This document shows positions 13,675-49,530 of a stretch of 64,000 bases of DNA, in pieces. Source of the DNA: Thermoproteus sp. (GTDB lineage: Archaea; Thermoproteota; Thermoprotei; Thermoproteales; Thermoproteaceae); NCBI GenBank assembly GCA_049976425.1, contig JBMFIG010000002.1, forward strand, positions 1 through 64,000, given 5' to 3'. A program made the position numbers and the translations under genes. The notes under the pieces are model-generated. The model did no database searches, was not told the DNA's origin, and saw nothing but the letters and a program-made list of their open reading frames with translations. Positions within the stretch are counted from its first letter, which is position 1. The number at the start of each line of letters is the position of its first letter.

Positions 13675-13867
13675 CTTTGTCGCTATGTCGGGCTGTATTA
13701 CAACAGATATATATCGCGGTTGTTTGGCCCTTAGTATATCTAGATCGACTTAGAGGTAGATATACAATACGGACTATTTTACATTAAATATAAATAAATA
13801 TATTTTAATAAATCATATAAATCCTAGATATATAGAATATATTTTGGTGAATAGAGAACATATCGGG

Positions 13868-15460: not shown

Positions 15461-15495
15461 GGCCACCACAACGATCTTTATAAAAAGCTTAGAGG

Positions 15496-17441: not shown

Positions 17442-17477
17442 GGCCCCGATATATCGGTCGGTCTATAAAAACTTATA

Positions 17478-18173
17478 TCAATCGATGCCGAGCAGGAACC
17501 GCGCGTCCACCACGTAGGCGCCCTTGCCCTCCTCGAGGGCTATGACGGGGTTCAGATCGGCCTCCCTTATGGCGGGGTTCTCGGACAACAGACGGGAGAA
17601 TTTGACAATTATATCGACTATCGCGTGTAGATCTCTCGGCGGAGTTCCGCGGTAGCCCGTCAACAGCCTATACGCCCTCACCTCCCTCAACATCTCCCAA
17701 GCGTCCTCCTCCTCGACCGGCACAAGCCTCATGGACACGTCTTTGTACAGCTCGGTCAATATGCCGCCTAGGCCGAACGCGAGCACGTGGCCGAAGATGT
17801 CGTCGTAGACGGCGCCTATTATGAGCTCGACGCCTTGAGGCACCATCCTCTGTATGAGGCAGCCCTCTATCTCCGCGTACGGCGCCCGCGCCTTGACCGA
17901 CTCCCTTATCTTGTTACACGCGGCGATCAGCTCGTCTCTGTTCGTCACGCCCAAGACGACGCCCCCCACGTCGGTCTTGTGGACTATCTGCCTCGATATC
18001 ACCTTAACTGCGACGGGATAGCCGATCCTCTCGGCGAGCGACACAGCCTCGTCCTCGTCCTTCGCTATGCCGTAGTCGGGCACAGGTATGGCGTATTTCC
18101 TCAACAGCTCGAAGGCCTCGTGCTCGTACAGCTTGTTCCTGCCCTCGGCCCTAGCCCTATCTACGACGCTCAT
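17478..18173 (-). CDS. acdB: Acetate-CoA ligase (ADP-forming), beta subunit
   Basis: ATP-grasp motifs GYPVAVK, HKTDVGGV, FGLGG..E.YKD and DLNP. Start moved to ATG 18173. Confidence 0.92.
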   Translation of the reverse strand: MSVVDRARAEGRNKLYEHEAFELLRKYAIPVPDYGIAKDEDEAVSLAERIGYPVAVKVISRQIVHKTDVGGVVLGVTNRDELIAACNKIRESVKARAPYAEIEGCLIQRMVPQGVELIIGAVYDDIFGHVLAFGLGGILTELYKDVSMRLVPVEEEDAWEMLREVRAYRLLTGYRGTPPRDLHAIVDIIVKFSRLLSENPAIREADLNPVIALEEGKGAYVVDARFLLGID

Positions 18174-33080: not shown

Positions 33081-34958
33081 TTATGATACTGTTATACCTA
33101 GGAGCTTGTCCAGCGCTTCCTTGTAGCGGCGCCACCACTCCATGTAGGCCTCGTCGGAGTCGAATTTCCAGTCCTTGGCCCCGAGCTCCCTCGCCATGGT
33201 CGACACCACGTCCATAGCCCTCCTGCTCTCCCATGGCCTCGGATCTGCGCCGGCCTTGATCGAGTACTCGGCGAATCTCTTGTAGAGGCTCCTATCCATG
33301 TCGATCCCCGTCAGCTTGAAGAGATCTCCCAAGATGGGCTCCGCCCACCCTCTGTGGAATCTGCATATTCCGGCGTCTTCCACCAACGACTCCATCACGG
33401 CGCGGTCGTATGCGGTTTTGGCGAACTCCTCGGGCGGCATGTAGGTGGGGTTGTAGTTTGTCCAGTACTTCCCCTGCACGTACATGGGGGCCACCATGCC
33501 GGGCGCCCAGTAGAAGTTGGGCGTCATGTAGCCCTCGTCGCCGTACGCCACGAAGACGGCGAGGTCTCTGAACCTGACGCCGGCCTTGGCCACCCTATCG
33601 GCGTACTTAGCCTCGAAGGCCCTCGCGGCCTTCCTGATGCCCAGCCTCGCGACGTCCTCCACGGCCTCGCCGCCGCCCTCGACGAACGCCCTCAGAAGCT
33701 CGCCCGCCAATCTGGCGTTCTTCTTGGAGTCCGTCTCGGGCTTGAACTTGTAGGGGTCGAAGACGGGGGCGTCGTCTATCCCCACCTCCTCGGGCCTCAG
33801 CAGTCCGTGCTCCACAGCGTCGAAGAGCCAAGCCGTGACGTGGCCCATCTCTATGGCGTCCAGGCCGTAGGCGTCTATCTCGTCGACCAGCTTAACCGAG
33901 TCCTCGAAGGTGTAGACCCCTATGAAGGGGCCCATGGCGTGTAACGGCTCGTAGTCCACCTTCTTCCCCTGCCAGACCTTCTTGCAAGTCACGGGGCAGG
34001 GCTCGCCGCAGTTGTACCAGCTCCTCGCCTTCTCGAAGACCAGCTCGTTGAAGGGCTTCCAGAACAGCCTAAGGATCGCGTCGGCGTGCCTCACCCTCTC
34101 GTCTCTGTCCATATATATCGATTTATACCCGAAGAGCGGGACGAGGTCCCTGTAGTGGACGTAGTTGACGCCGAAGGTGCCGCCGGTGCCGAGGCTCGGG
34201 TCGAAACGGTACTTGATGGTTTTCTCCTGCAAAGACTCTAGGTACCCCTTCTTGAGCCTCACCTTGGCCACCTCGTCGATCTTGTGTATGTCGGCCACCG
34301 CCTGGTACCGCGCCCTCGCCTTGCCGCCCGCTATCAACGCCGCCAGGTTGTGGCCTTGGGCGGCGACCGTGCCGGGCCCTCCTCTCGCGGCGAAATCCTC
34401 GGCGCCTTTAGAGAGCTCGCCTTTCGGCGTCAGGTCTATGGAGGCCAGGGCCCCGTTGTAAGTGCGCCACGCCGCGGGCCCCACCACGACGGCCCGGGCG
34501 TTGTTCCTCTGGAAGAAATCCCTATAGGAGTCGTAGAGGTACTTGGTAAAGGCGTAGACGCCGCGCAGTCCCTGATATTCGTATACGAGCTTCACGGGCT
34601 CTATCTTGACCCCCTCCTGGGATGCCAGCAACGCCACGGGCTCCGGCGCTCTGCCGGTGATCACGTAGGCGTCTATGCCAGCACCCATCATCTTATAGGC
34701 GGCTCCCCCCAAGGCGCTCGAGTGGAGCCCCCTCGTCATGGGGCTTCTGAAGACGGCCACAATCCTGTGCACGCCTATGAGGCGGCCTCCGACGAATCGG
34801 CCCATGCCTATAACCAGCGGCGCCTCCGGCGATAGTGGATCATGGCGCCAGCTCTCCGCCTCCTCGTGCACCTTGAGGCCGAGGCTGACCGGGCCCTGCG
34901 CCTCCACCTCCCTCACCTCCACCGAGGATCTGCCCAAGTCCACGAAAGCGACTCGCAT
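33081..34958 (-). CDS. gor: Tungsten AOR-family enzyme, most likely glyceraldehyde-3-phosphate:ferredoxin oxidoreductase (GAPOR)
   Basis: FAARGG.G, TGGTFGVNY, CGEPCP..CKK, KVDYEP, GLDAIE and GICRFHRGW. Confidence 0.85.
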   Translation of the reverse strand: MRVAFVDLGRSSVEVREVEAQGPVSLGLKVHEEAESWRHDPLSPEAPLVIGMGRFVGGRLIGVHRIVAVFRSPMTRGLHSSALGGAAYKMMGAGIDAYVITGRAPEPVALLASQEGVKIEPVKLVYEYQGLRGVYAFTKYLYDSYRDFFQRNNARAVVVGPAAWRTYNGALASIDLTPKGELSKGAEDFAARGGPGTVAAQGHNLAALIAGGKARARYQAVADIHKIDEVAKVRLKKGYLESLQEKTIKYRFDPSLGTGGTFGVNYVHYRDLVPLFGYKSIYMDRDERVRHADAILRLFWKPFNELVFEKARSWYNCGEPCPVTCKKVWQGKKVDYEPLHAMGPFIGVYTFEDSVKLVDEIDAYGLDAIEMGHVTAWLFDAVEHGLLRPEEVGIDDAPVFDPYKFKPETDSKKNARLAGELLRAFVEGGGEAVEDVARLGIRKAARAFEAKYADRVAKAGVRFRDLAVFVAYGDEGYMTPNFYWAPGMVAPMYVQGKYWTNYNPTYMPPEEFAKTAYDRAVMESLVEDAGICRFHRGWAEPILGDLFKLTGIDMDRSLYKRFAEYSIKAGADPRPWESRRAMDVVSTMARELGAKDWKFDSDEAYMEWWRRYKEALDKLLGITVS

Positions 34959-35044
34959 GGGTATACGGGTATTATTCCTCTTATCCTTTTTGGTAAACTC
35001 AATAATAATGATAAAACTTATTATGGTGTGTTATTAGGCCCTTT

Positions 35045-35431
35045 ATGGAGGTCAAAAATATCATGAGCGATCGCGTCATCTACTGCACCACGCGCGACAC
35101 CATAAGGTGCGCCGTCTCTAAAATGTACGCCTACAACATAGGCGCGGTGCTGGTCGTCGACGACGTGGGGAGCCCCGTGGGTATATTCACGGAGAGGGAC
35201 CTCGTCAAGGTCGTGGCCGAGGGGATAAGCCTCGACACGCCTCTCGAGAAGCTGGCGCCTAAGGAGCTGATAAAGGCCTACCCCAACGAGTCCGTGTTCA
35301 TGGCCGCGCAGAAGATGATCGAGCACAACATAAGGCATATACCGGTCGTCGAGGGCAATAGGGTGGTCGGCATCTTGAGCATAAGGGACGCCTTAAGGAG
35401 CTTAATAGCGCTGGAGGGGGCCTACCCCTAA
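35045..35431 (+). CDS. CBS-pair protein
   Basis: VGIFTERD and IRHIPVV...VVGILSIRD. Confidence 0.9.
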   Translation: MEVKNIMSDRVIYCTTRDTIRCAVSKMYAYNIGAVLVVDDVGSPVGIFTERDLVKVVAEGISLDTPLEKLAPKELIKAYPNESVFMAAQKMIEHNIRHIPVVEGNRVVGILSIRDALRSLIALEGAYP

Positions 35432-35463
35432 TCCTCTATTTAAGGCGATCGTTTTTTGTAGCT

Positions 35464-36144
35464 GTGAAGGAGCTACTGGCTCGCAAGGCGGTCGAGTTCG
35501 TGAGGGATGGGTCGGTCGTCGGTCTGGGCTCGGGCTCCACGGCGAAGGCCTTCATAGAGGAGCTCTCCAGGTTGGTCGCCGAGAAGGGCATAAGGATCAC
35601 CCTTGTCGCCACCAGCGTCGACAGCGAGCTGAAGGCGTTGGAGGTCGGGCTCGGCCCCTATCTGGCGCCGCCTTGGGCTGTCGACAGCATAGATCTAGCC
35701 GTTGATGGAGCCGACGAGATCTCTAGAGACAGGATATTCATAAAGGGAGGGGGCGGCGCGATGGTCCGCGAGAAGGTGATAGACTACAGGGCGTCGACCC
35801 TCGTGATAATCGCCGAGGCCCATAAGCTCGTCGATAGGTTGCCCAGCAACCGCCCGATCCCGATAGAGGTCCTGCCGGCGGCCTGGAGGCTAGTTGCGAG
35901 GGATGTGGAGAGGAGGTGGGGCGGGAAAACCGAGCTGAGGGCCTGCAGATGCGGCGGCAAGCTGGGGCCCCTGATAAGCGACAACGGCAACTTCATACTG
36001 GACTGGGTTCCCCCCGGCCCGGCCTACCCCGAGCTGGAGGACGAGCTGAAGGCCATACCCGGCGTAGTCGACACGGGCCTCTTCGCCAAGAGGAGAGACG
36101 CGGTGGTACTGCTGGCGGACGAGAGGGGAGTCTTTGCTCTATAG
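35464..36144 (+). CDS. rpiA: Ribose-5-phosphate isomerase A
   Basis: GLGSGST, DGADE, IKGGGGA..REK, SDNGN and GVVDTGLF. Confidence 0.96.
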   Translation: MKELLARKAVEFVRDGSVVGLGSGSTAKAFIEELSRLVAEKGIRITLVATSVDSELKALEVGLGPYLAPPWAVDSIDLAVDGADEISRDRIFIKGGGGAMVREKVIDYRASTLVIIAEAHKLVDRLPSNRPIPIEVLPAAWRLVARDVERRWGGKTELRACRCGGKLGPLISDNGNFILDWVPPGPAYPELEDELKAIPGVVDTGLFAKRRDAVVLLADERGVFAL

Positions 36145-36156
36145 ATCCAAGCGGCT

Positions 36157-37200
36157 CTATAGGAAGACCACCTCGGTCTTGGCGATTATTATATTGTCCT
36201 CGTCCTCGACAACCCTGACTATCGCCTCGGCGCCGGCCCTCAAGGGCCTCTCGGAGACGACTGTCACCGCGCGGTCCGTCAACGGATCGTCGGCAAGTCT
36301 GTTCGGCACCGCCAGATATTCGTTTCTGAAAATGCCGCGCCCCACTATCCTCACCTTTATCCTCTGGCCGGCCTTGACGGTCTTCGGCAGAGCTGGCCTC
36401 CTCTCGACGCCGAACGGGTTCTCCCTGCGCCAGTCCAGCCTCATCCCCAACTGCGCCTCCCATGCCTTGATTCTGCCCCAGAAGACGCCCCAGTCCACCG
36501 CCCTAACGCCTTTGGGGTTTCTGCCTCTCTTATGCGGTATGTACTTCTGTATAAGCACGGGAGGCCACCTCTTGCCCAGACCGGCGGCCCTCGCCCAGCT
36601 CGCGATCTTCGGTATCTGGTCGTCGTTGACGCCCGGTAGCCATACGGGAGAGACCAAGACGTCCATGGAGGTGTTTCTTACAACGTACTCGGCCAGCGCC
36701 ATGGCCTTCCGGGGATCGTAGTAGCTGGCGTTTGCGAGCCTCGCCGCGAGGGAGGGCTCGACGGCGTCTAGGCTGAGGTTTATTCTGTCGAGGCCGGCCT
36801 CGGCGAGCTCCTCTATCTTCCTCTCGGTGAGGGTGAACATGCGGCTCTGCATAGACACGACGGACACGCCCCTTATGGACTTCACGTCTTGGACCAGATC
36901 CACCAGCTCGTTGTAGACGGCCGGCTCGCCCATGCCGTCTATATGCACCTCGACGCCGTCGCCTTTGTACTTCACCACGGCCCTGAGGGCCTCGACAAGG
37001 GCGTCCCTCCTCACCACGAAGTCCGCCCATCTGCGGGGCTCCAGAGGGCCTGCCGCCACGGAGCAGAACACGCAGTTGAGAGGACAGAGGCTCGTCGGCC
37101 TTACCTCAACTACGTTGGTGCCTTGATCCACAATGCCGTAGTAGCGCGTCCCGATCTGCGGAAGCCCGTCGACGAAGTAGATCTCCCTCCGCCGCTCCAC
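36157..37200 (-). CDS. Archaeal radical SAM protein with a C-terminal TRAM-like domain (COG2100-like)
   Basis: GIVD.GTN..EVRP, CPLNCVFC (CxxxCxxC), HIDG.GEP and RINLS. Confidence 0.85.
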   Translation of the reverse strand: MERRREIYFVDGLPQIGTRYYGIVDQGTNVVEVRPTSLCPLNCVFCSVAAGPLEPRRWADFVVRRDALVEALRAVVKYKGDGVEVHIDGMGEPAVYNELVDLVQDVKSIRGVSVVSMQSRMFTLTERKIEELAEAGLDRINLSLDAVEPSLAARLANASYYDPRKAMALAEYVVRNTSMDVLVSPVWLPGVNDDQIPKIASWARAAGLGKRWPPVLIQKYIPHKRGRNPKGVRAVDWGVFWGRIKAWEAQLGMRLDWRRENPFGVERRPALPKTVKAGQRIKVRIVGRGIFRNEYLAVPNRLADDPLTDRAVTVVSERPLRAGAEAIVRVVEDEDNIIIAKTEVVFL

Positions 37201-37283
37201 CGCTACTCGATCTACATAAAAATTAATTCCCGCGGCGCCTCACCGCGCCGGCTCGGCCGGCCCTCGGCGCCGCTAGTCCCGGC

Positions 37284-38012
37284 CTATTTTATAATGTTGA
37301 CGGGTATATAGACGTATATAGCCGTCGAGTTGTCATTGATTGAGAGAGAGGCGTATATGTGCGGGGCGAACGTCTTGTTGAGGTAGTAGCCGAGACACCT
37401 CATCCTCTGCCTCTCCGTTAAGGTTAGAGAGCCGCCTAAGGTTCCCACGAAACGGTCGCCCTGCCGGTACAAGACGCCCTCCAAGTACCCCTCTAGGGAG
37501 AACCCCGGCGGCACGTAGGCCGCCAGCTCCCGCCCGACGTCGTCTAGGCCTCCCCGGACGCTGGCCGTCGAGACGGCCTCGGCGACGCGTAGGAGCGTGA
37601 TGGGCTTGGCCCAGTCTATCCTCCCCTCAACGGTGCGGTTGAGGTAGTGCACGGCGTAGTCGAAGGCCTCCCCCGCGAAATGCGCCCCGCCTCCAAGGCT
37701 CCGCAACGGCGGATAGCGGCTCAGCCCCCTCAATGTGGCGTTGAATGTAGCCGACGCCGAGAGGTATATAGCGGGATCCGACATAGACACCGCCTTGACC
37801 GCATCGGACTCGACCAGACAGATCGTGGCGTTGGGCAGCTGGCTTGCCAGCTCCTGCCAGGCGTCCAAGGCGATTTTGACGGGCAGATATGCGCGGAGGG
37901 CCTCGTCGTAGAGATAATATATGGAGTATATCGCCACGAAGGCCGCTAGAACAATCGCGAAAATCGCCGTGGCCGCTACGGAATACACGCTATATAGTGT
38001 CTTTATCGCCAC
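37284..38012 (-). CDS. Hypothetical membrane-anchored protein
   Basis: N-terminal TM and NxT/S sequons; start uncertain. Confidence 0.6.
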   Translation of the reverse strand: MAIKTLYSVYSVAATAIFAIVLAAFVAIYSIYYLYDEALRAYLPVKIALDAWQELASQLPNATICLVESDAVKAVSMSDPAIYLSASATFNATLRGLSRYPPLRSLGGGAHFAGEAFDYAVHYLNRTVEGRIDWAKPITLLRVAEAVSTASVRGGLDDVGRELAAYVPPGFSLEGYLEGVLYRQGDRFVGTLGGSLTLTERQRMRCLGYYLNKTFAPHIYASLSINDNSTAIYVYIPVNIIK

Positions 38013-38033
38013 CTTCGCCGTCCGCCTAGCCGG

Positions 38034-38888
38034 CTATCTGAAGTAGGCCCAGCCTCTGTACTTCAGCTCCTCGCCCTTGTAGTACACCCTCCCCTCGCCC
38101 TCGACGACCTTGGCGAACGCCATATAGCCCTCGGGCACGCAACGGGGATCTACGGCGAAGACGGGGAGGTACTCCTCGCCCGCGTTTAGGACGACCTCCT
38201 CGGGCTCCACGCCTAGATTCAAGGCCTCCGAGATCACCTCCTCCGGCGCCGGCAACCTCTCCAGGATTATGTCGACCCCTCTGGCCATGGTCCACAACAC
38301 GTCCGCGACGCCGTCCGACGAGTCCATGGAGGCGGAGACGCAGTCGGGCGGCGGAGGCCTAGGCCAATCGAGCATGGGCCTCTTCAGCCACGCGATGCCC
38401 CTGGCGATTACGGGCGACCTCTCTCCCTCTCTAGACGCCACGAAGGCGAGGCCGGTGTAGCCGAACAGAGGAGGCGCGATGAGGACGTGGCCGGGCCTAG
38501 GCCTTCTGCCTATCTTTACGGGGACCGCGCCTATTGCCGCTATGTCCACCACGACCTCCCGTCCTTGGTTGAGATCGCCGCCGAGATACCTAACGCCGAA
38601 GTGGGCCGCCGCCTCCCTAATCCCGTCGAAGACCTCCCTAGCTCTTTGGGCGTCCGGAGCCGTTATGGAGCTGAGCAGGGCTTTAGGGACGGCGAACTTG
38701 ACGAACAGATCGCTCAAGGTGGCGGCGACGGCCCTCCAGCCGAGGTCGGCGTAGGTGTGGAACGGCAACTTGGCCCAGCTCTCCGCGAACCCGTCTATCT
38801 TGACGGCGAACCCGTCGACGTAGGATACGTCGTTATCCTCCTCGCCCAGCTCTTTAAGGAAAAGACGGAGGAGTACCTTCTCGTCCAC
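38034..38888 (-). CDS. thiL: Thiamine-monophosphate kinase
   Basis: LGWRAVAATLSD, LGGDLN, MDSSDG and AGEEY. Confidence 0.85.
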   Translation of the reverse strand: MDEKVLLRLFLKELGEEDNDVSYVDGFAVKIDGFAESWAKLPFHTYADLGWRAVAATLSDLFVKFAVPKALLSSITAPDAQRAREVFDGIREAAAHFGVRYLGGDLNQGREVVVDIAAIGAVPVKIGRRPRPGHVLIAPPLFGYTGLAFVASREGERSPVIARGIAWLKRPMLDWPRPPPPDCVSASMDSSDGVADVLWTMARGVDIILERLPAPEEVISEALNLGVEPEEVVLNAGEEYLPVFAVDPRCVPEGYMAFAKVVEGEGRVYYKGEELKYRGWAYFR

Positions 38889-39254
38889 CTACTCCACCGA
38901 CCTATAGATTAAATCGGTTACGTCGTCCACCTCCCCGTTCTTCAGAGGGGTCCAGAGAGGCGATCTGTCGCGGCAGATGATATAGCGGATTTTGGATCTG
39001 CTGTCGTCCCTCGTCACGAGGCCCTTGGCGGTCAGCCCCTCCAAAACGTGTTTGACCAAAGTGAGGGCTATAGGCGCCGTTGTGTCTATGCCGGCGAACT
39101 CCAGGACTCTGCGCGGCGTGAACGAGACGCAGTTGCCGCGGGCCTCCGAGACTATCTTGTAGAGCCCCAGTGCGACGGTCTTGGTCACCTCTCTGAAGTC
39201 CGTGATGTTAAACGGCCTCATGTAGGGGGGACTCTCGGCGAAAATAAGACTCAC
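38889..39254 (-). CDS. Hypothetical protein, possible winged-helix fold
   Basis: VKHVLEGLTAKGLV...SKIRYII resembles a wHTH helix and wing; stop abuts the thiL start. Confidence 0.65.
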   Translation of the reverse strand: MSLIFAESPPYMRPFNITDFREVTKTVALGLYKIVSEARGNCVSFTPRRVLEFAGIDTTAPIALTLVKHVLEGLTAKGLVTRDDSRSKIRYIICRDRSPLWTPLKNGEVDDVTDLIYRSVE

Positions 39255-39385
39255 AAACCGGATGGGATACCCCTAGATCCATTCTGCCTGTGATACAGGC
39301 CTCGGTCTGCCACGGTGAATGTACGGCTTAAATACGCCGGCCTGAAGACGTACAGGTCTATTACAGGGGTGATAATTGCGAGATA

Positions 39386-40165
39386 CTATAAATAGAGCGA
39401 TATCAAGATATACGTCAAGCCAAGAGATGCTTCAACTATCAAGTTGACAGCTTCATTTGTCAAGTAGCCAGACACCTTGTAGTCGGGACACCTCGGCTCG
39501 TCGTACATATCGGCGCCGCAGAAGAACTTCCTCTGCGCCACGGCGCCCACCACGCTGTCTAGGACATCGCCGGCGAAGCCCAGCCCCCAGACCACGTAGG
39601 GGTTGACGCCGAGGAGCAAGTACGAGAGGAGGGCGACGGAGGCGGCCCCCGCCAGGGAGGCCAACGTCCCGGCCAAAGTGACGCCGCCTGACGTGCCCGG
39701 CTCCACCCGCACCCAGGGCTTGGTTATCAGCCTCGGCCTTCCGCCGTAGGCCACGCCGACCTCGCTGGCCCACGTATCGGCGGTGGCTATAGCTATGGCG
39801 GCTACTGTGGCGGTCAGCGCGGGGCGGACGCCTGCCATGTACAGCAACGCGAAGAGCGCCATCGGGGTCCCCACCCCGACCACTTGAGTTATGGATCTGC
39901 CGGCCACGTCCTTAAGCCCGTGTTGGGCCTTCCAAGACCCCCTCAGCCTCGTCAAGAGGCTCGCAGACACGAAGAAGTATATGAATACTGCGAAGACGGC
40001 GATCCCGGTAGCGGCGAGAGCCCAAGCTATCAACGTACCCGCCACGGCCCCCCTCAGGTTTATGAAACGGGCTCTATACGCCGCGAAGGCGAAGGCCGGA
40101 ACGACCGCGGCTATGGCCAGCTGGGCGAGGTCCACGCCCCCCTCCAGCCTATGGTATATATCCAT
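39386..40165 (-). CDS. DUF92 (TMEM19/VTE6 family) membrane protein
   Basis: [36 protein letters not shown] and NEAVN. Start may be a few codons downstream. Confidence 0.88.
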
Positions 40166-40189
40166 TTAAAGAAGGTGTATGACGGCGCC

Positions 40190-41194
40190 ATGGACGTGCT
40201 CGACAGGCTGTCGGAGAAGTACGGCCCCCGCATCGAGGAGGCGTTGGCGAGGTATCTGTTGAGGGACGTGGCGGACGACTTCAAAGACGCGGTGCTCTAC
40301 CAGGTCTCCACAGGCGGCAAGCGCCTGAGGCCGATCTTGACGTTGGCGGTCGCCGAGGCCGTATCTGGCGACTACGAGAAGGCCCTGCCGGCGGCGGCCA
40401 TAGTGGAGCTCATACACAACTACAGCCTCATATACGACGACATAATCGATAGGGGCGAGGTCAGGAGGAACAAGCCGACGACGAGGGCCGCCTTCGGCGA
40501 CTACGCGGCTATCCTCATCGGCATATGGTACCGCGAGGCCATCGAGGAGGCCGTGTTGGACACGCCCAAGCCGCCGGAGTTCGCCAGAGAGGTGGCCAAA
40601 GTGATAAAGGCCATAGACGAGGGCGAGAGGCTCGACATACTCTTCGAGCTGGCCGGCCGGGACGATCCCTATTTCGTCAAGGCCAGATGGCCCTCCGTCA
40701 AGCTCGACGACTATATAAGGATGGTCGGCTTGAAGACGGGGGCCTTGATAGCGGCGGCGGCCAAATGGGGCGCCATGAGCGTCGCCGACGACAGACAGCT
40801 TGCGGACGCCGCGTGGGACTTCGGCATGAACGCCGGCATAGCCTTCCAAATAGTCGACGACGTCCTCGACATATTCGGCGACCCGAAAAAGTTCGGCAAG
40901 GAGATCGGGAAGGACATAAAGGAGCACAAGAGGGGCAACATCGTCGTGTTGCTCGGCCTTGAGGAGCTCGACGAGAGATCGCGCGGCGAGCTCCTCTCGA
41001 TCCTGTCCAAGCCGACGGTGAGCGACGAAGACGCCAGACGCGGCGTCCGTATGCTGGAGGGCACCAACGCCAAGGAGAGGGCCCTGGCCCTGGCCGACAA
41101 GTATCGGGAAAGGGCTCTTGCGAGCCTCTCCAAAATGCCGCACAATAAGGACCTAGAGGAGCTGGCGGCCTTCATAGTACAGAGGCAGTTCTGA
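40190..41194 (+). CDS. Geranylgeranyl diphosphate synthase (polyprenyl synthetase)
   Basis: [17 protein letters not shown]...RR, KTG and FQIVDDVLD. Start moved to ATG 40190 after TTTAAA. Confidence 0.93.
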
Positions 41195-41913
41195 TGTTGG
41201 TGGTCAAATTCGGCGGCTCCGCCATCACGGACAAGAAGAGGCCCTACACGTATAGGTGGGGGAGGCTGAGGGCGGCCGCGCAGGCGCTTAGGGGGACGCG
41301 CGCTATACTCATACACGGGGCGGGCTCCTTCGCCCACCCACACGTGAGGGCCTTCGGCCTAACGCCGGCCGGCGTGGCCAAGACCAAGGCCGCCTTGAGG
41401 AGACAGACCGCGATGGTGGTGGAGGACTTGGCGGCCGCCGGCATCTACGCCATGCCGATCGAGCCCAGCGAGGTCTTCTGGGGCGCCAAGCTCGTCCGCA
41501 GAGAGCCCATCGACGCGGCTCTGTCGGCGGGGCTGTATCCGCTTCTCCACGGAGACGTGGTCCCGTCCGACGGCGGCTACGTCGTGGTGAGCGGCGACGA
41601 TATGGCCGTGGAGCTGGCCTCGGAGTATAGGCCTCGGGCCGTCGTCTTCTTGATGGACGTCGACGGCATATACACCGCGGAGCCGGGAACTCCAGGCGCC
41701 GTGAAGTTGAGGGAGATCGCGGGCGGCGTGGCGGGAGGGGCCGCCGGCATAGACGTGACGGGCGGCATAGCCAAGAAGGTCGAGGCCGGGCTCGCCATCG
41801 CCGGGCTCGGGATACCGGCGTACTATTGCTCCATCGACGACGTTGCCGCCGTCGCCGACCTGGCGGCGGGCAGAGAGCCGGAGACCTGTAGCGTGGCTAG
41901 GCCTAGCAGGTGA
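41194..41913 (+). CDS. ipk: Isopentenyl phosphate kinase
   Basis: VKFGGSAITDK, HGAGSFAH, HGDVV, SGD and DVTGGI..K; coupled to the GGPP synthase gene. Confidence 0.9.
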   Translation: MLVVKFGGSAITDKKRPYTYRWGRLRAAAQALRGTRAILIHGAGSFAHPHVRAFGLTPAGVAKTKAALRRQTAMVVEDLAAAGIYAMPIEPSEVFWGAKLVRREPIDAALSAGLYPLLHGDVVPSDGGYVVVSGDDMAVELASEYRPRAVVFLMDVDGIYTAEPGTPGAVKLREIAGGVAGGAAGIDVTGGIAKKVEAGLAIAGLGIPAYYCSIDDVAAVADLAAGREPETCSVARPSR

Positions 41914-42181
41914 CCGTGGGGGCGTTCGCCGTGAGGTACAACGCCAGCACTACATATATCAGCAACAAGACCACGACCGCGCCCCACAAGAGCGTGCTGT
42001 TCCTATCGCGGGCGTAGAAGACCGCGGTGGCCGTCAAGACGCCGAGGACGGTATACCACAGCAGGCCCCCGCACAGGGAGGGGAAGAGCACTATGGACCA
42101 AAAGCCCTGGAGGAATAGGGCCACTAGGACTGCGGCAACCACCGTTATGACCAAGGCGAGCTTGTCGGTCCCGCGCGGCAT
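41903..42181 (-). CDS. Small membrane protein
   Basis: Three hydrophobic segments and a TTTAAA box upstream. Confidence 0.65.
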   Translation of the reverse strand: MPRGTDKLALVITVVAAVLVALFLQGFWSIVLFPSLCGGLLWYTVLGVLTATAVFYARDRNSTLLWGAVVVLLLIYVVLALYLTANAPTVTC

Positions 42182-42248
42182 GTACCCCGCGACGGGGGGC
42201 CCATTTAAATGTTCTTAGTGTTTTTAAACAGGTGCCGGGTTCGGTGCC

Positions 42249-42782
42249 ATGTCTGTTCTGACCCAGACAGTGACGAGGTGCCCGGTGTGCGGCGCCAACA
42301 CGTTCAACTACACGGAGTTCCTCTACGACGCGCCGTATTTCGGCAACATAGTGGTCTCGACCGGCTTCTGCAGGACGTGCGGCTACAGATTCTTCGACGT
42401 GGACTACGCCGAGTCGGGCAACCCCACGCGGGTCGTCTTCAAGGCGGAGGACGGCGACGACGTGTCGAAATCGTTGTTGATCAGGTCGAAGACCGGCAGC
42501 GTCAGATCGCCGGATCTGGGCTTCAGCCTCGAGCCGGGCCCCCAGGCCGAGCCCTTCGTGACTACGGTGGAGGGGCTCCTCTACAGAGCTCTCGACTACG
42601 CAGAGCGTCTGAAGGTTTTGGAGCCCGAGAGCGCGCAGAGGGTGGACGAGTTCATGGAGAGAGTGCGGAAGGCCATAGAGGCGGGCGGCTTCACCTTGAT
42701 AGTGGAGGATCCTCTGGGCAAGAGCGTGGTCGTCCCTAGACGGCCCGAGCTTGTGAGGATAGAGCCCCTCGGCAGTACCTAG
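42249..42782 (+). CDS. ZPR1-related zinc finger protein
   Basis: CPVCG, PYFG...CRTCGYR, TTVEG and EDPLG.S. Confidence 0.92.
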   Translation: MSVLTQTVTRCPVCGANTFNYTEFLYDAPYFGNIVVSTGFCRTCGYRFFDVDYAESGNPTRVVFKAEDGDDVSKSLLIRSKTGSVRSPDLGFSLEPGPQAEPFVTTVEGLLYRALDYAERLKVLEPESAQRVDEFMERVRKAIEAGGFTLIVEDPLGKSVVVPRRPELVRIEPLGST

Positions 42783-43326
42783 CTAGGTAGGTCTTCAGCA
42801 GGTCGGGGTAGGGCGGCGGGTAGCCGGAGAGCTTCTTGACAAACATCTCGATTAGGTCCCTCGTGTCGTATCCTCTCTCGGCGTAGCGGCACGCCCTTAT
42901 TAGAGTCGCCAGCTTGTCGGCGAAGGAGACCAGAACGCCGAGCTTCCCGTCGGCTTTCCTGTAGCTCTGGAAAAGCTCGTAGAGGTGCGGGTACAAGCGC
43001 CTCATTGCCTCGAGCTCCAGAGACTCCCAGTCCACGACAGCCCGGACCCCGTTGCCGGGATGGCCCAGCTCGGCCTCGGCCAGATCGTGTATGGCCGCCG
43101 CCGCGACCGCCTTGGCGACGTCCACGTCCTCGCCTCTAGACCTCAGCTCGGCCGCTATCTCGCCGGCCAGAAGCGCGGCCAGGAAGGCGTGTTGGCACAC
43201 GGTCTCCGCCGCCTCGACCCCCCTCTGCAACCAGCCGATGCGCTTGATGTTGCAGAGCGTGTCGACGACGCTGACGAGGTCCCTGGCCCCCTCCCCGCCC
43301 TTCGGCATTCCCTCAGGGCGAGTCAT
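42736..43326 (-). CDS. HD-domain hydrolase (YfbR-like); the first ~15 residues come from the IS right end
   Basis: KRIGW..RG...ETV..H, IHDLAEA and ADKL. Native sequence starts at (M)DLVSV, at 43282. Confidence 0.85.
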   Translation of the reverse strand: MTRPEGMPKGGEGARDLVSVVDTLCNIKRIGWLQRGVEAAETVCQHAFLAALLAGEIAAELRSRGEDVDVAKAVAAAAIHDLAEAELGHPGNGVRAVVDWESLELEAMRRLYPHLYELFQSYRKADGKLGVLVSFADKLATLIRACRYAERGYDTRDLIEMFVKKLSGYPPPYPDLLKTYLARYCRGALSSQARAV

Positions 43327-43400
43327 CGGCGCCCTCTACCCCTGCCCGTCTGGGCAGGGGTCATGGGGCTGGCCCGGGCCAGCACGGCGGGCCTTGAGAC
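43283..43400 (-). ncRNA. Candidate TnpB omega/reRNA scaffold
   Basis: Perfect hairpin ACCCCTGCCC-N4-GGGCAGGGGT (43338-43361) plus the right-end hairpin, overlapping the tnpB 3' end as expected for this family. The 5' boundary is a guess. Confidence 0.5.
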
Positions 43401-44674
43401 GGGCCTCTCGGCTTGGAGGACTATTCTACTCCATTCCTCCAGCCGTCTCTCGTCCACAGCAGATAGGGCTTTCTTGACGATCTCGGCGAATCTGGGATCG
43501 AGTTTTTCCGCGGCCCTCCTCAACATGTTGAGGACGGAGGCCACATCTCTGTGGACCCAGTGGTTGTGCGGACACAGCCCGATCTTCGGCCCCATCGGGA
43601 AGGAAAGCGGTTCGCCGTGTATTGGACACGTCTTGGAGTTCCTGTACGCGGATACCAGCAGGAGCCTCAGCCCCCTCTCCTCCGCCTTATCGGCGGTCTT
43701 GGCCAGTATCGCCTTCATCGGCGTTTGCTTGACGCGGTGCCTCAACTCGGCGTTTCTAGTCCTCTCAACCATCTCCTCTTGAGGCCTCTCGCCTACATCC
43801 TCTGTGATGAGGACGGCGGGCTCCTTCGTTAATTCGTGGGCAACCTTATTGACCCTATCCCTCTTCCTGTCCCTCTCCCTCAGCCTCCTCACCCGCTTCC
43901 TGTACTCTCTCGTGTGGACGCCGGATGCCCTCTTCCCGTTTATTTCTACTGTCAGCTCCTCGGCCCACTTCCTGCGGATCGCGCCGTAGCGCTTGGCCAG
44001 ACGGCCGAAATCGGTGCGGAACACCTTAATCGAGATCGGCGGAGATATCCACTGACAGTTCTGCCGCGCGACCGTATCGACAGTGGCCTTTAGATCAACC
44101 CTAGCCGCGACGACAGTGTTCTCATTGACGTCGAAGGCGGTTATGGCTACGGGCTCCTTCTCCCCTTCTGGCTCCACCTCGTAGGTGAAGACGGCGTATA
44201 CCCTGTCTCTGACGCGCTTCAGCCTAATCGTGCTGGCGCGTTTAGCCCTCCCCGTCTTGGCAAGCCACTCGAACTTCCAGAAGCGTCTGTGGGGCCAGAG
44301 CTCCACTACATGCCTGCCGGACATGAGGCGGATTGATAGAGCGGTCGCCGAGTCGAAGCGCCAGGCATCGCCTCTTACGTAAGGCGCCACGCGCCCCACC
44401 CTCGGAGGCCTCCTTCCCGCCTCGGCCCAAGAGTTGTACGCCTCCACGGCGTCCTTAACCGCCTGTTGCTGGTAGGCGGCGGGGAGGCCGAACTGCTTGA
44501 CGGAGTCCTTCACCTCGTGCCATACGCGGAAGTAGCTGGCCCCCCGTACTTCTCCACGAGGTAGTCCACCGTCATCTGCTTAGCCTTCCTGTACGCCCTC
44601 TCAAGCTCTAGGTAGTCGAGGAGCTGGTTGCCGTCGAGCAGAAGCGGCACTGCGACAGAGCGCCTAACCACCAT
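43323..44674 (-). pseudogene. tnpB: TnpB RNA-guided nuclease, frameshifted at a G6 run
   Basis: RuvC motifs AFDVNE, ITEDV and HRDVASVLN, plus SKTCPIHG...CPH. The upstream segment from ATG 44674 (MVVRRSV...EKYGG) needs one extra base at 44540-44545 to join ASYFRVWHEVKD. Confidence 0.8.
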
Positions 44675-44949
44675 AACTAAATTAAGGCCTTGTTAAAAGC
44701 CCTACCCCACCCTAAAGGGCGAGGTTTGCCGCCGCTCTATGACGCCCGCCCCGCGTGCACAACAACTGTTCGAAAGACATCCGCCCAGCCGTTGGAGCTC
44801 CCTGTGCCATGGAGCGTAATGCCGTGCATCTGTGGCCGGGTTGCTGCATATGGCTTGGCTTGTTGGTCCTCGTCCAGGAAGCACTTGCCCGTGCCACCTT
44901 ACACTAATGGGCCTTTATCGGACTGGAGTTCGAGGTCATCTCTATATCT

Positions 44950-45029
44950 TTCCTAAACTCTCGTCTACGCTTTCCTAAGTAGGAAAAATATAGGCGAAAG
45001 TTTAGGAAGAATGTATTAGGAAGAATGTA
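44950..45029. repeat. Nested inverted repeat followed by a 14-bp tandem duplication
   Basis: TTCCTAAACT (44950) pairs with AGTTTAGGAA (44999), TCGTCTA with TAGGCGA, and TTTCCTA-AG-TAGGAAA (44971-44986) is the core. TTAGGAAGAATGTA occurs twice (45002-45029). Confidence 0.8.
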
Positions 45030-45037
45030 GATGGAAG

Positions 45038-45445
45038 CTATTTGACGACTAGGACGCTTACGTCGCTTTCCTGCACAAGTCTGCTCGCCACGCTCCCGAG
45101 GAGAGATCTCCGGATCGTCGAAAGCCCTCTGCTCCCCACCACTACTAAATCAGCCTTGACCTCCTTGGCGAATTTCGCTATCTCGTGCGGCGGATCGCCC
45201 TCAAGCAACCTACTCTCGGCTGTCGGGATCACGCCGAGGGCCTCTCTCAGAGCCTTCTCCCCGCTTTCGCGCAGGCTTTTCACAACGCTTGGGGTCGAGA
45301 AGGCCTCCGAGAGCGACAAAACGGCGGTGTCGACCACATGAACCACGTATACCTTGGAACCGAACTTCTCAGCAATTACCTTTGCAGTCTCGAGAGCCTT
45401 TTTGGCATGTTGAGACCCGTCGTACGCTACGACTATGGTCTTCAT
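45038..45445 (-). CDS. Universal stress protein
   Basis: IVVAYDGS, ADLVVVGSRG and LLGSVA. Start moved to ATG 45445. Confidence 0.93.
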   Translation of the reverse strand: MKTIVVAYDGSQHAKKALETAKVIAEKFGSKVYVVHVVDTAVLSLSEAFSTPSVVKSLRESGEKALREALGVIPTAESRLLEGDPPHEIAKFAKEVKADLVVVGSRGLSTIRRSLLGSVASRLVQESDVSVLVVK

Positions 45446-45631
45446 AGAGAGGTGACCGACTCTGGTTTTTAACATTTCCGTCATAGTAATACCTAATTTG
45501 TGAGAATGAGATATATTTATTTATTGATTAATATTATTTAATTATAAATAAAATAAAATTACTATAGGTTGGTTCATCCAAATAATCGTCTTGGTGCGTA
45601 TCTAAGGTGCTTTTATAGGGTCGTTTTCGGC

Positions 45632-46198
45632 ATGGAGCACCTGTCCATATACCGCATGGCTGACGCCGTCCACGCCCTATTTGCGATCGATAGAGAGCCG
45701 TATGCGCTGAACGCGTTTCTGAAGATAGCAAACAGCTGGGTGTTGAGAGCGCTTTCCGACGTTCCGGGCTCGGATCTCAGGAGGCGTGCTTGTGGGGCCT
45801 TTATAAAACTGCTGGACAAAGCACGGAGCGTATTGGAAGCCCCGGCGGTCGTCAGAGCGCCCTGCTCGCCTAGAGGCGCGGCAAAGATAGAATCTATTAA
45901 GTACAGTGGCTGTGCCAAGTTTTTGGCAGAATGGGGGGCCGAGTTTGTCTATAGGTTTGTCTACGACGAAAGGATAAGGGCTAGGGCCGTAAAAGCTGCC
46001 GCGAGAAATTTGGCGGCTTATATGCAATACGGCTTGAGGGTCGAGGGCCCATATGCTGACGACTGGCTTGTCCTCGCCGAGGCTCCGCCGAGCTACGAGC
46101 CCCGCGACGTCGTGTGGAAGCCCTTTATGGCCAGAGTAAAGGTAGACATACTGCCTCAATGCGTGCAACTGTCCGCGGACGTTAGGACATGGATGTAA
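45632..46198 (+). CDS. Hypothetical protein, first gene of the pilus-associated operon
   Basis: ATG lies ~20 nt after TTTTATA and the gene overlaps the next one. Confidence 0.7.
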   Translation: MEHLSIYRMADAVHALFAIDREPYALNAFLKIANSWVLRALSDVPGSDLRRRACGAFIKLLDKARSVLEAPAVVRAPCSPRGAAKIESIKYSGCAKFLAEWGAEFVYRFVYDERIRARAVKAAARNLAAYMQYGLRVEGPYADDWLVLAEAPPSYEPRDVVWKPFMARVKVDILPQCVQLSADVRTWM

Positions 46199-46890
46199 AG
46201 GTCGATATAATAAACGCAGACAATCTCGCCGACTTCTTGAAGGAGCAGGCCGGAGCCACGGTGATAGATCCGTATCCCGAAATCGTGCCGACGGCGTTGG
46301 AGGACAAACTGCTATATCTAGCCTCGTCAATATACGGAGGGATAAGTCCTCTACCGCTGTTCTCGTTTGAGAAGGGAGGGGGCCGTTATTTACTGTCGCC
46401 GAGGCTCCACAAGCTTTTGGCCGACCTAATGCCGGGCCTCAAGGTGCTCCATATAGAGGTTGTCGGCGAGCCGCAGTACCCGTTTACGGCGATCGCGCTC
46501 GTGCTCAGAGATCTCGGCATCAGCGTCGACGAAAAATTCCTCAAGCAGTACATCTGTCCCGAGCTTGCCGCGTTGGAGGAGGACGACGTGCCGCTGGCGC
46601 GCGCCATAAGATCTGCCGTGTCCAAATACCTGACGATGGCGTCGTCGGGCGCCTCGACGCGATCGATAAAGTGTTTCTGCGGGCTCTGCGAGGATCGCGG
46701 CAGTGGACTGGACCTAGACGCGCTGGCGTTGAGCTTGACGAAGAGAGGCGCGTCGAGGGCATACAGCCGCCGCGGGTTAATGGACCTAAACGACGAGGAC
46801 AAGGCCATAATCATGCGCGTCATAAGAGGGCTTTCCATACCCGAATTCAGAAGGGAGCTCATCGATCTGCTCAACCGATATGAGGTATAG
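46189..46890 (+). CDS. Hypothetical protein, possibly a degenerate ParB/Srx-like domain
   Basis: LASSIYGGISPLPLF...GRYLL has ParB/Srx-like spacing but lacks the GxxR motif; also has a CFCGLC cluster. Confidence 0.5.
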   Translation: MDVKVDIINADNLADFLKEQAGATVIDPYPEIVPTALEDKLLYLASSIYGGISPLPLFSFEKGGGRYLLSPRLHKLLADLMPGLKVLHIEVVGEPQYPFTAIALVLRDLGISVDEKFLKQYICPELAALEEDDVPLARAIRSAVSKYLTMASSGASTRSIKCFCGLCEDRGSGLDLDALALSLTKRGASRAYSRRGLMDLNDEDKAIIMRVIRGLSIPEFRRELIDLLNRYEV

Positions 46891-47233
46891 ACGCGGCGAC
46901 TTCGAGGCGTCGTTTGTGCGGATAGGCGGGGACAAGTACAGAGTTGAATTAAAGTATAGGGGGAGGCCTCTAAAGATTAAGAAGATTGTTTTGGAGTATC
47001 TCGTCTACGATCGTTACAGATATGCCGTAGATCCCCACAGCGAGGTCCTCTACGTATTTATCTCGCGGACGCCTCCCGTAGTTGTCAAGTCGGCATGGAG
47101 GTCCTCCAAGATAATAGCGAAGGCCAAGGACGGCGCTCTGGCCGCCGTCGCCGACGTTGTCCTCGACTTCGCCGAGGTCTACATGACGGCGTACAGGGCC
47201 AATGCCCTCGATAGATTATTCCATGAGGACTAA
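46880..47233 (+). CDS. Hypothetical basic protein
   Basis: 117 aa, overlaps both neighbours. Confidence 0.7.
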   Translation: MRYRRGDFEASFVRIGGDKYRVELKYRGRPLKIKKIVLEYLVYDRYRYAVDPHSEVLYVFISRTPPVVVKSAWRSSKIIAKAKDGALAAVADVVLDFAEVYMTAYRANALDRLFHED

Positions 47234-47927
47234 GTTCGCGGTTTTCTTCTCGGTCGACGGCGGCGTGGGCAAGACGACGCTGGCGCTGGCCACCGCTTTT
47301 GAGAAGGAGAGGGTCCTCATAATAGATGCCGATTGGGAGAAGGCTGATCTATCCTCGATCTTCGGCGTTCCCAAAAGGCCCGGATGGCTCGCCGGCCGGT
47401 ACGGCAAGGACGTCTACGTGCATAAAGTTCGCCCAAACCTCTACGTGATACCCGGCTACGAGGCTGCTATGCTGTACCAGTCCGGCAAGATAGGCGACTC
47501 CGAGCTCTTCGAGGCGCTCTACGATACCCTAGTCGCGCTTCCCGACGCCTTGGCCGAGGAGCGTCTTCCGGTGGATACCGTGATTGTCGACACGCCGAAG
47601 GCGCTACAGCTGACGTGGATTGAGGCCTTGCAGAGGAAGCTCAAGGCGCTTATGTACTTCGTAGCCGATAGGCGGCTCGTCACGAGGATAGCCGATGTTA
47701 AGATGCAGATATACGGCAGATACATGCGCTACGCCTCGCTTATAGTGGCCAACATGTTGGAGAAGGGCGACGAGAAGGCCCCCGGTATAAAGATGGTAAA
47801 CGCGTTCTTGACGAGGGTCAAGATGCCCTCCGATTACTCAGCCGAGAGGATATACAAGGCGGTCTTAGGGGATCGGCGGAATAGAGAGGCGTTGTCGTTG
47901 TTGGTCAAGTGGATAAAAGAGAAGTGA
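47223..47927 (+). CDS. MinD/ParA-family ATPase (TadZ/CpaE-like)
   Basis: SVDGGVGKTT, VLIIDAD, NLYVIPG and VIVDTP. Start moved to ATG 47223. Confidence 0.85.
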   Translation: MRTKFAVFFSVDGGVGKTTLALATAFEKERVLIIDADWEKADLSSIFGVPKRPGWLAGRYGKDVYVHKVRPNLYVIPGYEAAMLYQSGKIGDSELFEALYDTLVALPDALAEERLPVDTVIVDTPKALQLTWIEALQRKLKALMYFVADRRLVTRIADVKMQIYGRYMRYASLIVANMLEKGDEKAPGIKMVNAFLTRVKMPSDYSAERIYKAVLGDRRNREALSLLVKWIKEK

Positions 47928-47928
47928 G

Positions 47929-49530
47929 ATGTCTTTGGCAGGTGCTCTGTTTGCCAAGGCCGATAACTCGTTGTTGGATAGGTGCGTGTTGTTCAAGAAA
48001 GGCGTGATGGTCTACCGCAATTACGCCACCGACATCTGCATAACAGACGACGGAGAGTACGTGGTGGTCGATCCGCAGTTGCCGGATGTTCTCGAGAAGG
48101 CCCTCGCGTTAACTGCGCTTCGTGGCGCCGTGCCGCCCGATTACGGGGAATACGACAAGGCAATAAAAGACGCGTTGCTGGCACTGGCGCCGAGCCGAGG
48201 CGTAGCCGGCTGGCGGTGGTATAGAAACGCCTTGCGGACATATAGAGAGCATAGAGAGCTCGTTCACTACTTCCTGGACAGATGGAGCGGACACGGCGAG
48301 TTCGGCGGCTACGGCGTGCTGGAGGCGCCTATGAGGGACGATCTACTGACCGAGATCGCCGTACCGCAACCCCTGGCGCCTCCAGGCAGGTGGAGCGAGC
48401 TTCCACGCAATCCGTTAGAGCTCTTGGACAAAATATACGCGGAGATGGTCGAGCTGGGGCGCTACCGGCGCGTCGTCGCGATCCGCAACGAGGCGCGAAT
48501 GCCCACTAACGTGGTGGTGCCGGAGGCCTTCATGCCCATATTGGTGAAGAAGCTGGTGCCGAGCTTGACCCTCGAGCGGCCGTTCCAGACCAGAGAGGAT
48601 CCCGTATATCGGCTCAGAATAGCGGCGGATCTGCTCGAGTACAACGTGAATATAAGGAAGATGAGCGAGCCGCCGCGGCCCTCGGCGGGCCTCATTAAGG
48701 TGTACGAGCGCCCGCGCCGTCTCGAGGACTCGGAGAGCCGGCCGAACGTCCAAGACCTCTCTGCTCTAGAGGTCTTCGCGCTGGCCACCATAGCAGCTGA
48801 GGCGAGATGGACGGTGATATTCTCAGGGGCCATGGGCACCGGCAAAACCACCCAGCTGAACCTCTTGCTCTACTTCATCCCGCCGTGGATGCAAGTCGTC
48901 ATCATAGAGAGAGGCGCGCGGGAGATCTGGGCGCCTCTGGAGGGCCAGATCCTCCACATATCGGTCCCCTCGGAGTCGAGGCTCATGGACGCTCTGGATC
49001 AAGCCCTCCGCTACGGCACCATGGCCACCATAGTGACTCTGGCAGAGGCCAGGACCAGCCAGGAACTTAACTTCTTAGTTTCCTACAAGTTGACGGGCCA
49101 CGGCGGGCTGACGACGATGCACGCCGACACCATACACGACGCCCTTCTGCGTATAAAGAGGTCGGGCGCCCCTGTCGAGGCCCTCGCAAACACCATGATT
49201 CTGCAACTAGGAGTATCCGGAGGCGAGAGGTATCTAAAAGAATGGAAGGCGTTGATAGCGCTGGGCGGAGAGGTGGCGGAGGCGCCTGTGGCCGATGTGT
49301 TGGGCCTTCTGAACGCCTACACCAAGTCCACATACGATACCAAGATCCTCGACGAGGTGAGGACGAGGGCCGGTCTACTTAAGGCGATCGCGTCCAAGGA
49401 GCTGGAGCCTCTCGAGGCGCGAGAGGCTGTACTGAAGCTCTTCTCCCGTAGAGAGATATCGGTGGTCGACGACGCCGTAAAGCACGGCTATCAGCTGGAA
49501 GGTAGATATTTCCATGAAGCTCAAGTTTAG
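47929..49530 (+). CDS. Type IV pilus/secretion assembly ATPase (TadA/VirB11/ArlI family)
   Basis: GYGVLE..M.D..LTEI, NIRK, Walker A SGAMGTGKTT, VIIE, LR...LAEAR and His box TGHGGLTTMHA. Confidence 0.92.
   Translation: MSLAGALFAKADNSLLDRCVLFKKGVMVYRNYATDICITDDGEYVVVDPQLPDVLEKALALTALRGAVPPDYGEYDKAIKDALLALAPSRGVAGWRWYRNALRTYREHRELVHYFLDRWSGHGEFGGYGVLEAPMRDDLLTEIAVPQPLAPPGRWSELPRNPLELLDKIYAEMVELGRYRRVVAIRNEARMPTNVVVPEAFMPILVKKLVPSLTLERPFQTREDPVYRLRIAADLLEYNVNIRKMSEPPRPSAGLIKVYERPRRLEDSESRPNVQDLSALEVFALATIAAEARWTVIFSGAMGTGKTTQLNLLLYFIPPWMQVVIIERGAREIWAPLEGQILHISVPSESRLMDALDQALRYGTMATIVTLAEARTSQELNFLVSYKLTGHGGLTTMHADTIHDALLRIKRSGAPVEALANTMILQLGVSGGERYLKEWKALIALGGEVAEAPVADVLGLLNAYTKSTYDTKILDEVRTRAGLLKAIASKELEPLEAREAVLKLFSRREISVVDDAVKHGYQLEGRYFHEAQV

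Follow-up and report, generated by a model that had tools for sequence, protein, structure and literature searches.

Thermophilic archaeal TnpB proteins have already been characterized and are in use (PMC10640517, PMC11043419). Here we describe a tnpB element from Thermoproteus sp., carried by a 64,000-nucleotide (nt) stretch of DNA that we call the window (assembly GCA_049976425.1, contig JBMFIG010000002.1, positions 1 to 64,000). One end of the element splits the start codon of a gene for an HD hydrolase. We consider it very probable that a TnpB-only IS200/IS605 element inserted 3′ of TTGAT, at the overlap between a gatD-like gene and the HD gene, and that the window joins the right half of this insertion to the left end of another insertion, whose site lies next to the universal stress protein gene usp.

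ISDra2 of Deinococcus radiodurans, whose TnpB has 408 amino acids (aa), resembles the window element in its position 3′ of a pentanucleotide without target duplication and in its subterminal hairpins. The order of parts is also the same: tnpB is followed by a structured RNA that ends at the right boundary, the RNA being a prediction in our case. The target-adjacent motif (TAM) of ISDra2, TTGAT, is the same pentamer as the verified target at the HD site, and TTGAT supports cleavage by DraTnpB according to PMC11043419. The predicted fold of an intact homologue of the window protein matches the ISDra2 TnpB structure 8h1j as well as 8exa. Unlike ISDra2, the window element has no tnpA, and neither does any of 29 genomes of its family. 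Intact proteins of the window lineage are about 455 aa long and 11-16% identical to ISDra2 TnpB in structure-based alignments. Further differences are a degenerate motif position -3 (G or T, once C) and a zinc site of the form CPxH...CPxxH.

The solo-tnpB IS605-type elements of Sulfolobus islandicus REY15A, together with SisTnpB1/TnpB7, are likewise TnpB-only copies in thermophilic crenarchaeal hosts. PMC10640517 gives the TAM of the solo tnpB elements as TTTAT, taken from left-end flanks, and reports that SisTnpB1 performs RNA-guided cleavage at 75°C, making staggered cuts; a flexible TAM requirement is reported in PMC11043419. The Sulfolobus TnpBs belong to another protein lineage, with no Sulfolobus protein among the best 120 relatives listed for the window protein, and the window-family motif is T(G/T)AT and not TTTAA. 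The literature combining TnpB and Pyrobaculum, judged by title and the start of the abstract, contained nothing on such elements. The IS1341 group, as defined in ISfinder, comprises elements that have IS200/IS605-type ends, lack a transposase gene, and carry orfB/tnpB as their one gene. The window element agrees with this definition.

RESULTS

The split start codon and the ends of the element

The element, the interrupted gene, and the left-end hairpin are located as follows.

43283-44738, minus strand: TnpB-only IS200/IS605-type (IS1341-like) element of 1,456 bp, its ends taken from empty sites and an alignment of copies
42736-43326, minus strand: HD hydrolase gene, matching HD_3; ancestral start codon split, with its G at 43282
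44704-44725, minus strand: left-end subterminal hairpin with a 9-bp stem, the stem being kept in the left-end alignment

The open reading frame (ORF) of the HD gene is intact and 94% identical to its orthologue in G007, the closest relative, which has about 95% DNA identity. In Pfam the product matches HD_3 (E value 3.1e-10, 40.6 bits; cut-off 22.5), YfbR-like (29.5; cut-off 25.9), and HD (25.7; cut-off 22). As it stands, the ORF has 196 codons and begins at the ATG at 43324-43326, within the right end of the element, where it overlaps the tnpB stop (ATGA). The right end supplies it with 15 extra N-terminal codons, MTRPEGMPKGGEGAR.

Searching 41 related genomes for the HD protein, we extracted the start regions of eight same-genus orthologues. 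All eight are element-free (..AT|GGACCT..) and read ATG GA(C/T) CT.. directly 3′ of TGAT, TAAAT, TAGAT, or TAAT. The right end of the element falls between the AT and the G of this start codon, and removal of 43283-44738 in silico gives ATG GAC CTC GTC AGC. An initial annotation of the window, made from its sequence, had proposed that the element was inserted inside the HD start codon. This was borne out: the ancestral start, MDL(V/I), is uninterrupted in all eight relatives, and no orthologue without such a start turned up. The same empty sites fix the right boundary exactly at 43283; it is unambiguous because GGACC follows a G in the window but a T in the relatives. For annotation, the true HD start is the split ATG, and the first 15 of the 196 codons in the present ORF are borrowed from the insertion sequence (IS). 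Judging from the flanks of related copies, the restored ATG is no evidence that the two flanks of the element are cognate. It is uninformative because all 12 recognizable left flanks (among 13 sites) finish in AT and the right flank begins with G.

Read on the minus strand, the locus is ...GGCGTCAT|AGAGCGGCGGCAAACC...(element)...GGGGAGGGGGCCAG|GGACCTCGTCAGC. The element starts with AGAGCGGCGGCAAACC followed by the 9-bp-stem hairpin, and it finishes with a second hairpin, at 43294-43322, and then ...GGGCGGGGAGGGGGCCAG. Hairpins of both ends are conserved among copies. The termini, AGAGCGG... and ...GGGCCAG, are not inverted repeats. Twelve other left ends agree on the left boundary at 44738, where similarity to a 92% identical copy on contig C24 of the same assembly also ends. 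When 13 right ends from 6 genomes are aligned, 9 finish in YCAG at the right-boundary column; the other four have CCGG, TCGG, CCAT, and TCAT. Two pairs of occupied and empty sites, TTGAT|GGACC and GGTGAT|CTGCTCC, show no target-site duplication. The element thus has a 4- to 5-nt motif on its 5′ side, zero duplication, and subterminal hairpins without terminal inverted repeats, as expected of IS200/IS605. A Y1 (HUH) TnpA, the remaining hallmark, is present neither in the element nor in the genome, and the element is therefore non-autonomous (IS1341-like) at best. The end alignments and empty sites support the original assignment to IS200/IS605-type tnpB elements inserted without duplication 3′ of a short motif, and the further copies that we aligned share common ends with it.

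Truncated relics of the same IS family were seen at C19:11437-11975 (the 3′ half), C31:8771-8875 (a right end alone), and G007:C1:1192423-1192535 (a left end alone); this last match, L082, is a remnant of ~130 nt.

Two insertion sites, at the gatD-like/HD overlap and at usp

On the left side of the element, four further features have to be considered.

44739-44743, minus strand: GTCAT, a target-type motif beside the left end in the window, not the partner of the HD flank
44739-45035, no strand assigned: orphan DNA of 297 bp between the usp stop and the left end, absent from G007 at the corresponding place
45036-45043, minus strand: octamer AAATAGCT, of which a further copy immediately follows the right end on C84, at about C84:285-292
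45038-45484, minus strand: universal stress protein gene usp (Pfam Usp, E value 4.6e-34), the true neighborhood of the left end in the window

In the eight relatives, nothing within 1.5 kb upstream of the HD gene matches the left flank in the window (44739-45035). In all eight, the end of a conserved upstream gene sits directly before the HD gene. A 19-kb stretch of G007 (L037) locates this gene in our assembly: its positions 1-10066 correspond to contig C20:11514..419, and from the next base onward its positions 10067-19001 correspond to window 43282..34354. C20:418..1 is a left end of the element family, 79-80% identical to that of the window and lying directly after ...GGGGGGCTTTGAT (TTGAT). 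The ORF at C20:420..1694 (424 aa), read by eye as a candidate asparaginase/GatD-like protein, terminates with the TGA of TTGAT, and the stop of this gatD-like gene overlaps the HD start as TGATG. Since G007 runs from C20 to window 43282 and the left end on C20 follows TTGAT, the ancestral target at the HD site was this stop/start overlap, TGATG.

The other flank leads elsewhere. Window 45036-49300 corresponds to G007 from 544,562 (~544.6 kb), about 690 kb away from the HD site. On the opposite side of this point, G007 matches our contig C84 at 1-292; the same contig carries a right end at C84:308-682, with 72-78% identity to that of the window. The HD and usp sites are in opposite orientation in G007, and IS ends are found at both. 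The window contig, C2, has the left end of the usp-site copy joined to the right end of the HD-site copy. The element, its ends, and the split ATG of the single simple insertion first proposed are therefore real; its two flanks in the window are not partners, G007 being colinear with C20 and then with the window from 43282.

On the explanation that we favor, an IS200/IS605-family element (IS1341-like, non-autonomous) would have entered 3′ of TTGAT without duplication; insertion at TGATG would spare the upstream stop while parting the AT from the G. The window would show the right half of this HD-site insertion, with its left end on C20. A second insertion, 3′ of the TCAT that closes the 297-bp segment downstream of usp, would account for the left end in the window, and the right end of that insertion would be on C84. 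The two copies would have traded halves or partners, either in vivo or during assembly.

None of 61 other genomes of the order contains a match to the 297-bp segment, and a 37-nt probe taken from it found nothing in viral or genome contig collections. By inspection, TCAT is the sole TNAT within it. The octamer AAATAGCT occurs on both sides of the 297-bp segment plus element and is single in G007. We considered whether this repeat is a filled-in staggered TnpB cut and rejected it, having found by inspection no T(G/T)AT at the right distance on either G007 strand. As a conjecture, the 297-bp piece may have come to the usp site with its own duplication, and the IS afterwards at its last four bases.

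About 98 nt of the segment on the usp side form a palindromic unit with the ends CCATCTACATT.../...AATGTAGATGG; the unit recurs once, between genes, at C62:1201-1290.

Origin of the exchanged partners

The exchange could be a real inversion, spanning ~690 kb relative to G007, with two inverted IS copies as its endpoints, brought about by recombination within the copies or by boundary exchange. We regard this as evenly balanced. Its reciprocal product would be C84-element-C20. The opposite orientation of the two sites in G007 agrees with it, and the junctions on C2, C20, and C84 are exact inversion products. The longest exact match to any other contig is 23 bases for the end of C20 and 29 bases for that of C84, and copies are 70-80% alike where both are known, which leaves little common sequence for an assembler to cross. 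Compared with eight full-length copies and with the nearest proteins, the window element shows even identity throughout, although all copies are about equally distant (65-84%), which makes this comparison uninformative. A mis-join inside the copies would give the same junctions just as well, however, and outside this assembly we saw neither a read nor a contig that covers the complete element together with its two flanks. An exact scan for the 27-nt right junction returned 0 matches in a collection of metagenome contigs from which near-kin records may be missing. Recombination between copies that are 70-80% alike would also be unlikely, although the partner interiors (element positions about 430-1093) are missing and could be near-identical.

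Contig C2 could instead be an assembly chimera, formed when the assembler switched copies in the element interior of a genome that is colinear with G007 and has an element at each site. We think this quite possible, at somewhat less than an even chance. It requires no chromosomal rearrangement. The draft has 96 contigs, of which C20, C24, and C84 all end within IS copies, and a hot-spring metagenome run contains several 97-100% variants of the element interior, which could potentially confuse an assembly graph. Against a chimera, we saw no exact match as long as an assembler k-mer between the known parts of the copies, and identity does not change stepwise along the element.

Logan contigs cover the junctions unevenly. 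One, from the hot-spring run, crosses the left junction (44696-44853) with zero differences. The Usp-side contig departs from the window at 45036 and continues for 22 further letters off it; the HD-side contig stops at 43274. In this run (X1), bins 44844-45005 are almost uncovered, and no listed piece extends across 45035/45036 or across 43282/43283. A second metagenome run, X2, has no Logan contigs on the window.

The earlier picture of a single insertion with cognate flanks, target GTCAT|GGACC, and TAM (G)TCAT is almost certainly wrong, for all that deletion of 43283-44738 restores ATG GAC CTC and TCAT is compatible with a loose pattern TNAT: the left flank is unmatched upstream of HD in the eight relatives, which have a conserved gene end there, the two flanks are ~690 kb apart in G007, the true upstream gene is on C20 and closes in another left end at the exact complementary position, and any left flank of the family would restore ATG, since these end in AT.

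Several points weigh against the TnpB-only IS200/IS605 insertion with exchanged partners as a whole. The element interiors on C20 and C84 are absent from the assembly, and the pairing of ends is deduced from the gene order of a relative, not read. None of the 29 family genomes, G000 (99.4% completeness) among them, was found to have a Y1 transposase gene (PF01797); the expected mobilizing enzyme is not at hand, and we infer the IS200/IS605 mechanism from end anatomy only. The 8-bp repeat AAATAGCT around the 297-bp segment plus element is not a product of IS200/IS605 insertion. Scores for TnpB lie under curated cut-offs. Against NCBIfam guided_TnpB (NF040570), the main tnpB piece in the window has an E value of 1.1e-16 and 61 bits, and across copies the scores are 61-63 bits (E values 1e-16 to 3e-17, positions 37-389 of 389), compared with a cut-off of 100. 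For the Pfam Cas12f1-like TNB domain (PF07282), the window copy reaches 22.6 bits and two homologues 22.4 and 27.1, compared with 26.3. A sequence search of PDB chains with a five-row profile returned no TnpB or Cas12.

The target motif

We collected 15 left ends, which represent 13 independent sites. The starts of the left ends vary in length, and we let the position of the motif shift by -2 to +1 alignment columns; two placements were fixed by empty sites. The tetramer adjoining the left end is TGAT at six sites, TTAT at four, TCAT at one (the window), and CGAT at one. It is unreadable at one, L091, which has a diverged end and AACT. TNAT adjoins the left end at 12 of the 13 sites, at one of them in the empty allele only, and has a genome background of 0.0083 per position.

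Read from these flanks, the family motif is T(G/T)AT, and the TAM that pairs with the HD-site guide would be TTGAT and not (G)TCAT. The initial annotation had chosen (G)TCAT. This did not hold: GTCAT flanks the left end at the other site, downstream of usp, and the partner flank of the HD site, on C20, is TTGAT. Aligning the upstream sequences of other copies, a check that this annotation proposed, did reveal a common motif; TCAT, however, occurs at only 1 of the 13 sites.

At L045 (G023:C1, about 217.3 kb) the occupied site reads GGCGAT|...|CTGCTCC, compared with GGTGAT|CTGCTCC at the empty site L094 (G012:C9, about 18.0 kb); the first T of the motif is altered in the occupied copy. For the L051 site, no clean empty allele was found among five genomes.

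The tnpB gene and its product

The coding part of the element is in two pieces.

44510-44674, minus strand: N-terminal piece of tnpB, an ORF of 54 aa (MVVRRSVAVPLLLDGNQ...) that aligns to residues 1-50 of the intact homologues L051 and L046
43323-44513, minus strand: main piece of tnpB, 396 aa from a GTG; the open frame has 418 aa
44540-44545, minus strand: run of six G (G6) at the frame break; G7 would read through as Y-G-G-A-S-Y-F

The main piece is 67-69% identical to intact homologues. We modeled one of these, L051 (455 aa), with AlphaFold2 from an alignment with 76 relatives; the mean predicted local distance difference test score was 78.8. A Foldseek search with this model matched Cas12f (AsCas12f) with an E value of 2.8e-14 and ISDra2 TnpB (8h1j) with an E value of 3.3e-11 and a template-modeling score of 0.63; 8exa was also matched. 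In the 77-sequence alignment, D184, E294, D379, and C352/H355/C370/H374 are invariant, and their counterparts in the window copy are found in AFDVNEN, ITEDV, HRDVA, and CPIH...CPHNH. Assigned by alignment position and not by superposition, the three acidic residues would be the RuvC D-E-D catalytic triad.

The protein family is large, with 772 proteins at E values up to 1e-10 among 8,000 candidates. Names among the best 120 relatives listed are from Pyrobaculum, Thermoproteus, and Vulcanisaeta, and the proteins are frequently called "IS605 OrfB family transposase." The closest protein in a collection of 5.8 billion sequences is 79% identical.

Intact copies read Y-x-G-R-R-A-S-Y-F at the place of the G run. 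L046 and L051 are uninterrupted there, and so is the partial copy on C20, of which the first 117 codons are assembled. The window copy probably yields no full-length nuclease, because tnpB goes out of frame at the G6 run.

Frameshifts are present in four independent copies within ~20 nt of the G-rich run near codon 47, with the following ~400 codons open. Beside the window, the shifted copies are L040 and its orthologues (G6 or G5), L041/L050 (by -1), and L045 (by +1). Orthologous copies of one related insertion differ in the run, with G6 in L040 and G5 in L106 and L107. A locus search with a single protein gave two loci, both of them the L040 insertion, hence no additional site. The run near codon 47 is a mutational hot spot.

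The right-end RNA and the guide

The right end and the DNA beyond it provide the predicted RNA.

43283-43393, minus strand: right end, putative omega-RNA scaffold with three stems, overlapping the 3′ end of tnpB and stopping at the element boundary
43263-43282, minus strand: right flank, predicted 20-nt guide GGACCTCGTCAGCGTCGTCG, which doubles as the first codons of the HD gene

The final ~110 nt are the most conserved part of the element. A consensus fold of 13 copies has 26 pairs, 6 of which show compensatory changes, with variable loops; folded as a single sequence, the right end in the window has z = -2.2. This conserved structure fits an omega-RNA scaffold terminating at the element boundary. 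An Rfam search of 43000-45300 (E values up to 1) found no family, the one match being a chance microRNA at 19 bits.

That the right flank becomes the guide, as had been proposed, holds as a prediction: under the established TnpB model, the guide would be the 20 nt past the right end. This 20-nt flank is single-copy in the genome, and at its one occurrence the right end, not a TAM, comes before it. The structured RNA of the right end would carry GGACCUCGUCAGCGUCGUCG as its guide, and guided TnpB would then cleave the element-free allele, TTGAT+GGACC....

In the hot-spring metagenome run, summed contig depth over 43305-43385, in the conserved right-end RNA region, is 466, compared with 12-19 in the flanks. 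This indicates many related elements in that community.

DISCUSSION

In TnpB mining, it is unsafe to take TAM and guide from the flanks of a single copy, since copies can switch partners in vivo or in assembly. Here, a single-copy reading would couple the guide with TCAT, the rarest variant of the motif, and not with the verified TTGAT. The Pyrobaculum/Thermoproteus/Vulcanisaeta lineage, with proteins of ~450 aa that fall under TnpB cut-offs, offers candidates for hyperthermophile nucleases with a predicted TAM of T(G/T)AT and a defined right-end boundary. The window copy is itself broken.

How tnpB-only elements move is an old question, and this lineage offers a small but concrete instance of it: insertions are recently polymorphic, yet tnpA is absent throughout the family. 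PF01797 is present in 8 of 31 genomes of the sister family, in none of them within 1.5 kb of a related tnpB. It is improbable, in our view, that TnpB-only elements in this lineage move and rearrange chromosomes without a Y1 transposase (70-80% alike copies swapping partners in a ~690-kb inversion) and that the G run near codon 47 acts as a slippage switch for TnpB.

Insertions do differ between genomes that are about 95% identical, despite the family-wide lack of PF01797. The serine recombinase family PF00239 is found in 27 of the 29 family genomes, mostly as a single copy. We considered a serine recombinase as a partner, as in IS607-type elements, and rejected it: in G000 the gene lies among housekeeping genes, with no adjoining tnpB. 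Our assembly encodes a serine recombinase of 253 aa at C9:26572-27027 (L110 1204-1965, minus strand), with a C-terminal CxxC...CxxC tail. On C20, ~1 kb at 8073-9068 is absent from the colinear place in G007, and an adjacent stretch of 123 nt is repeated.

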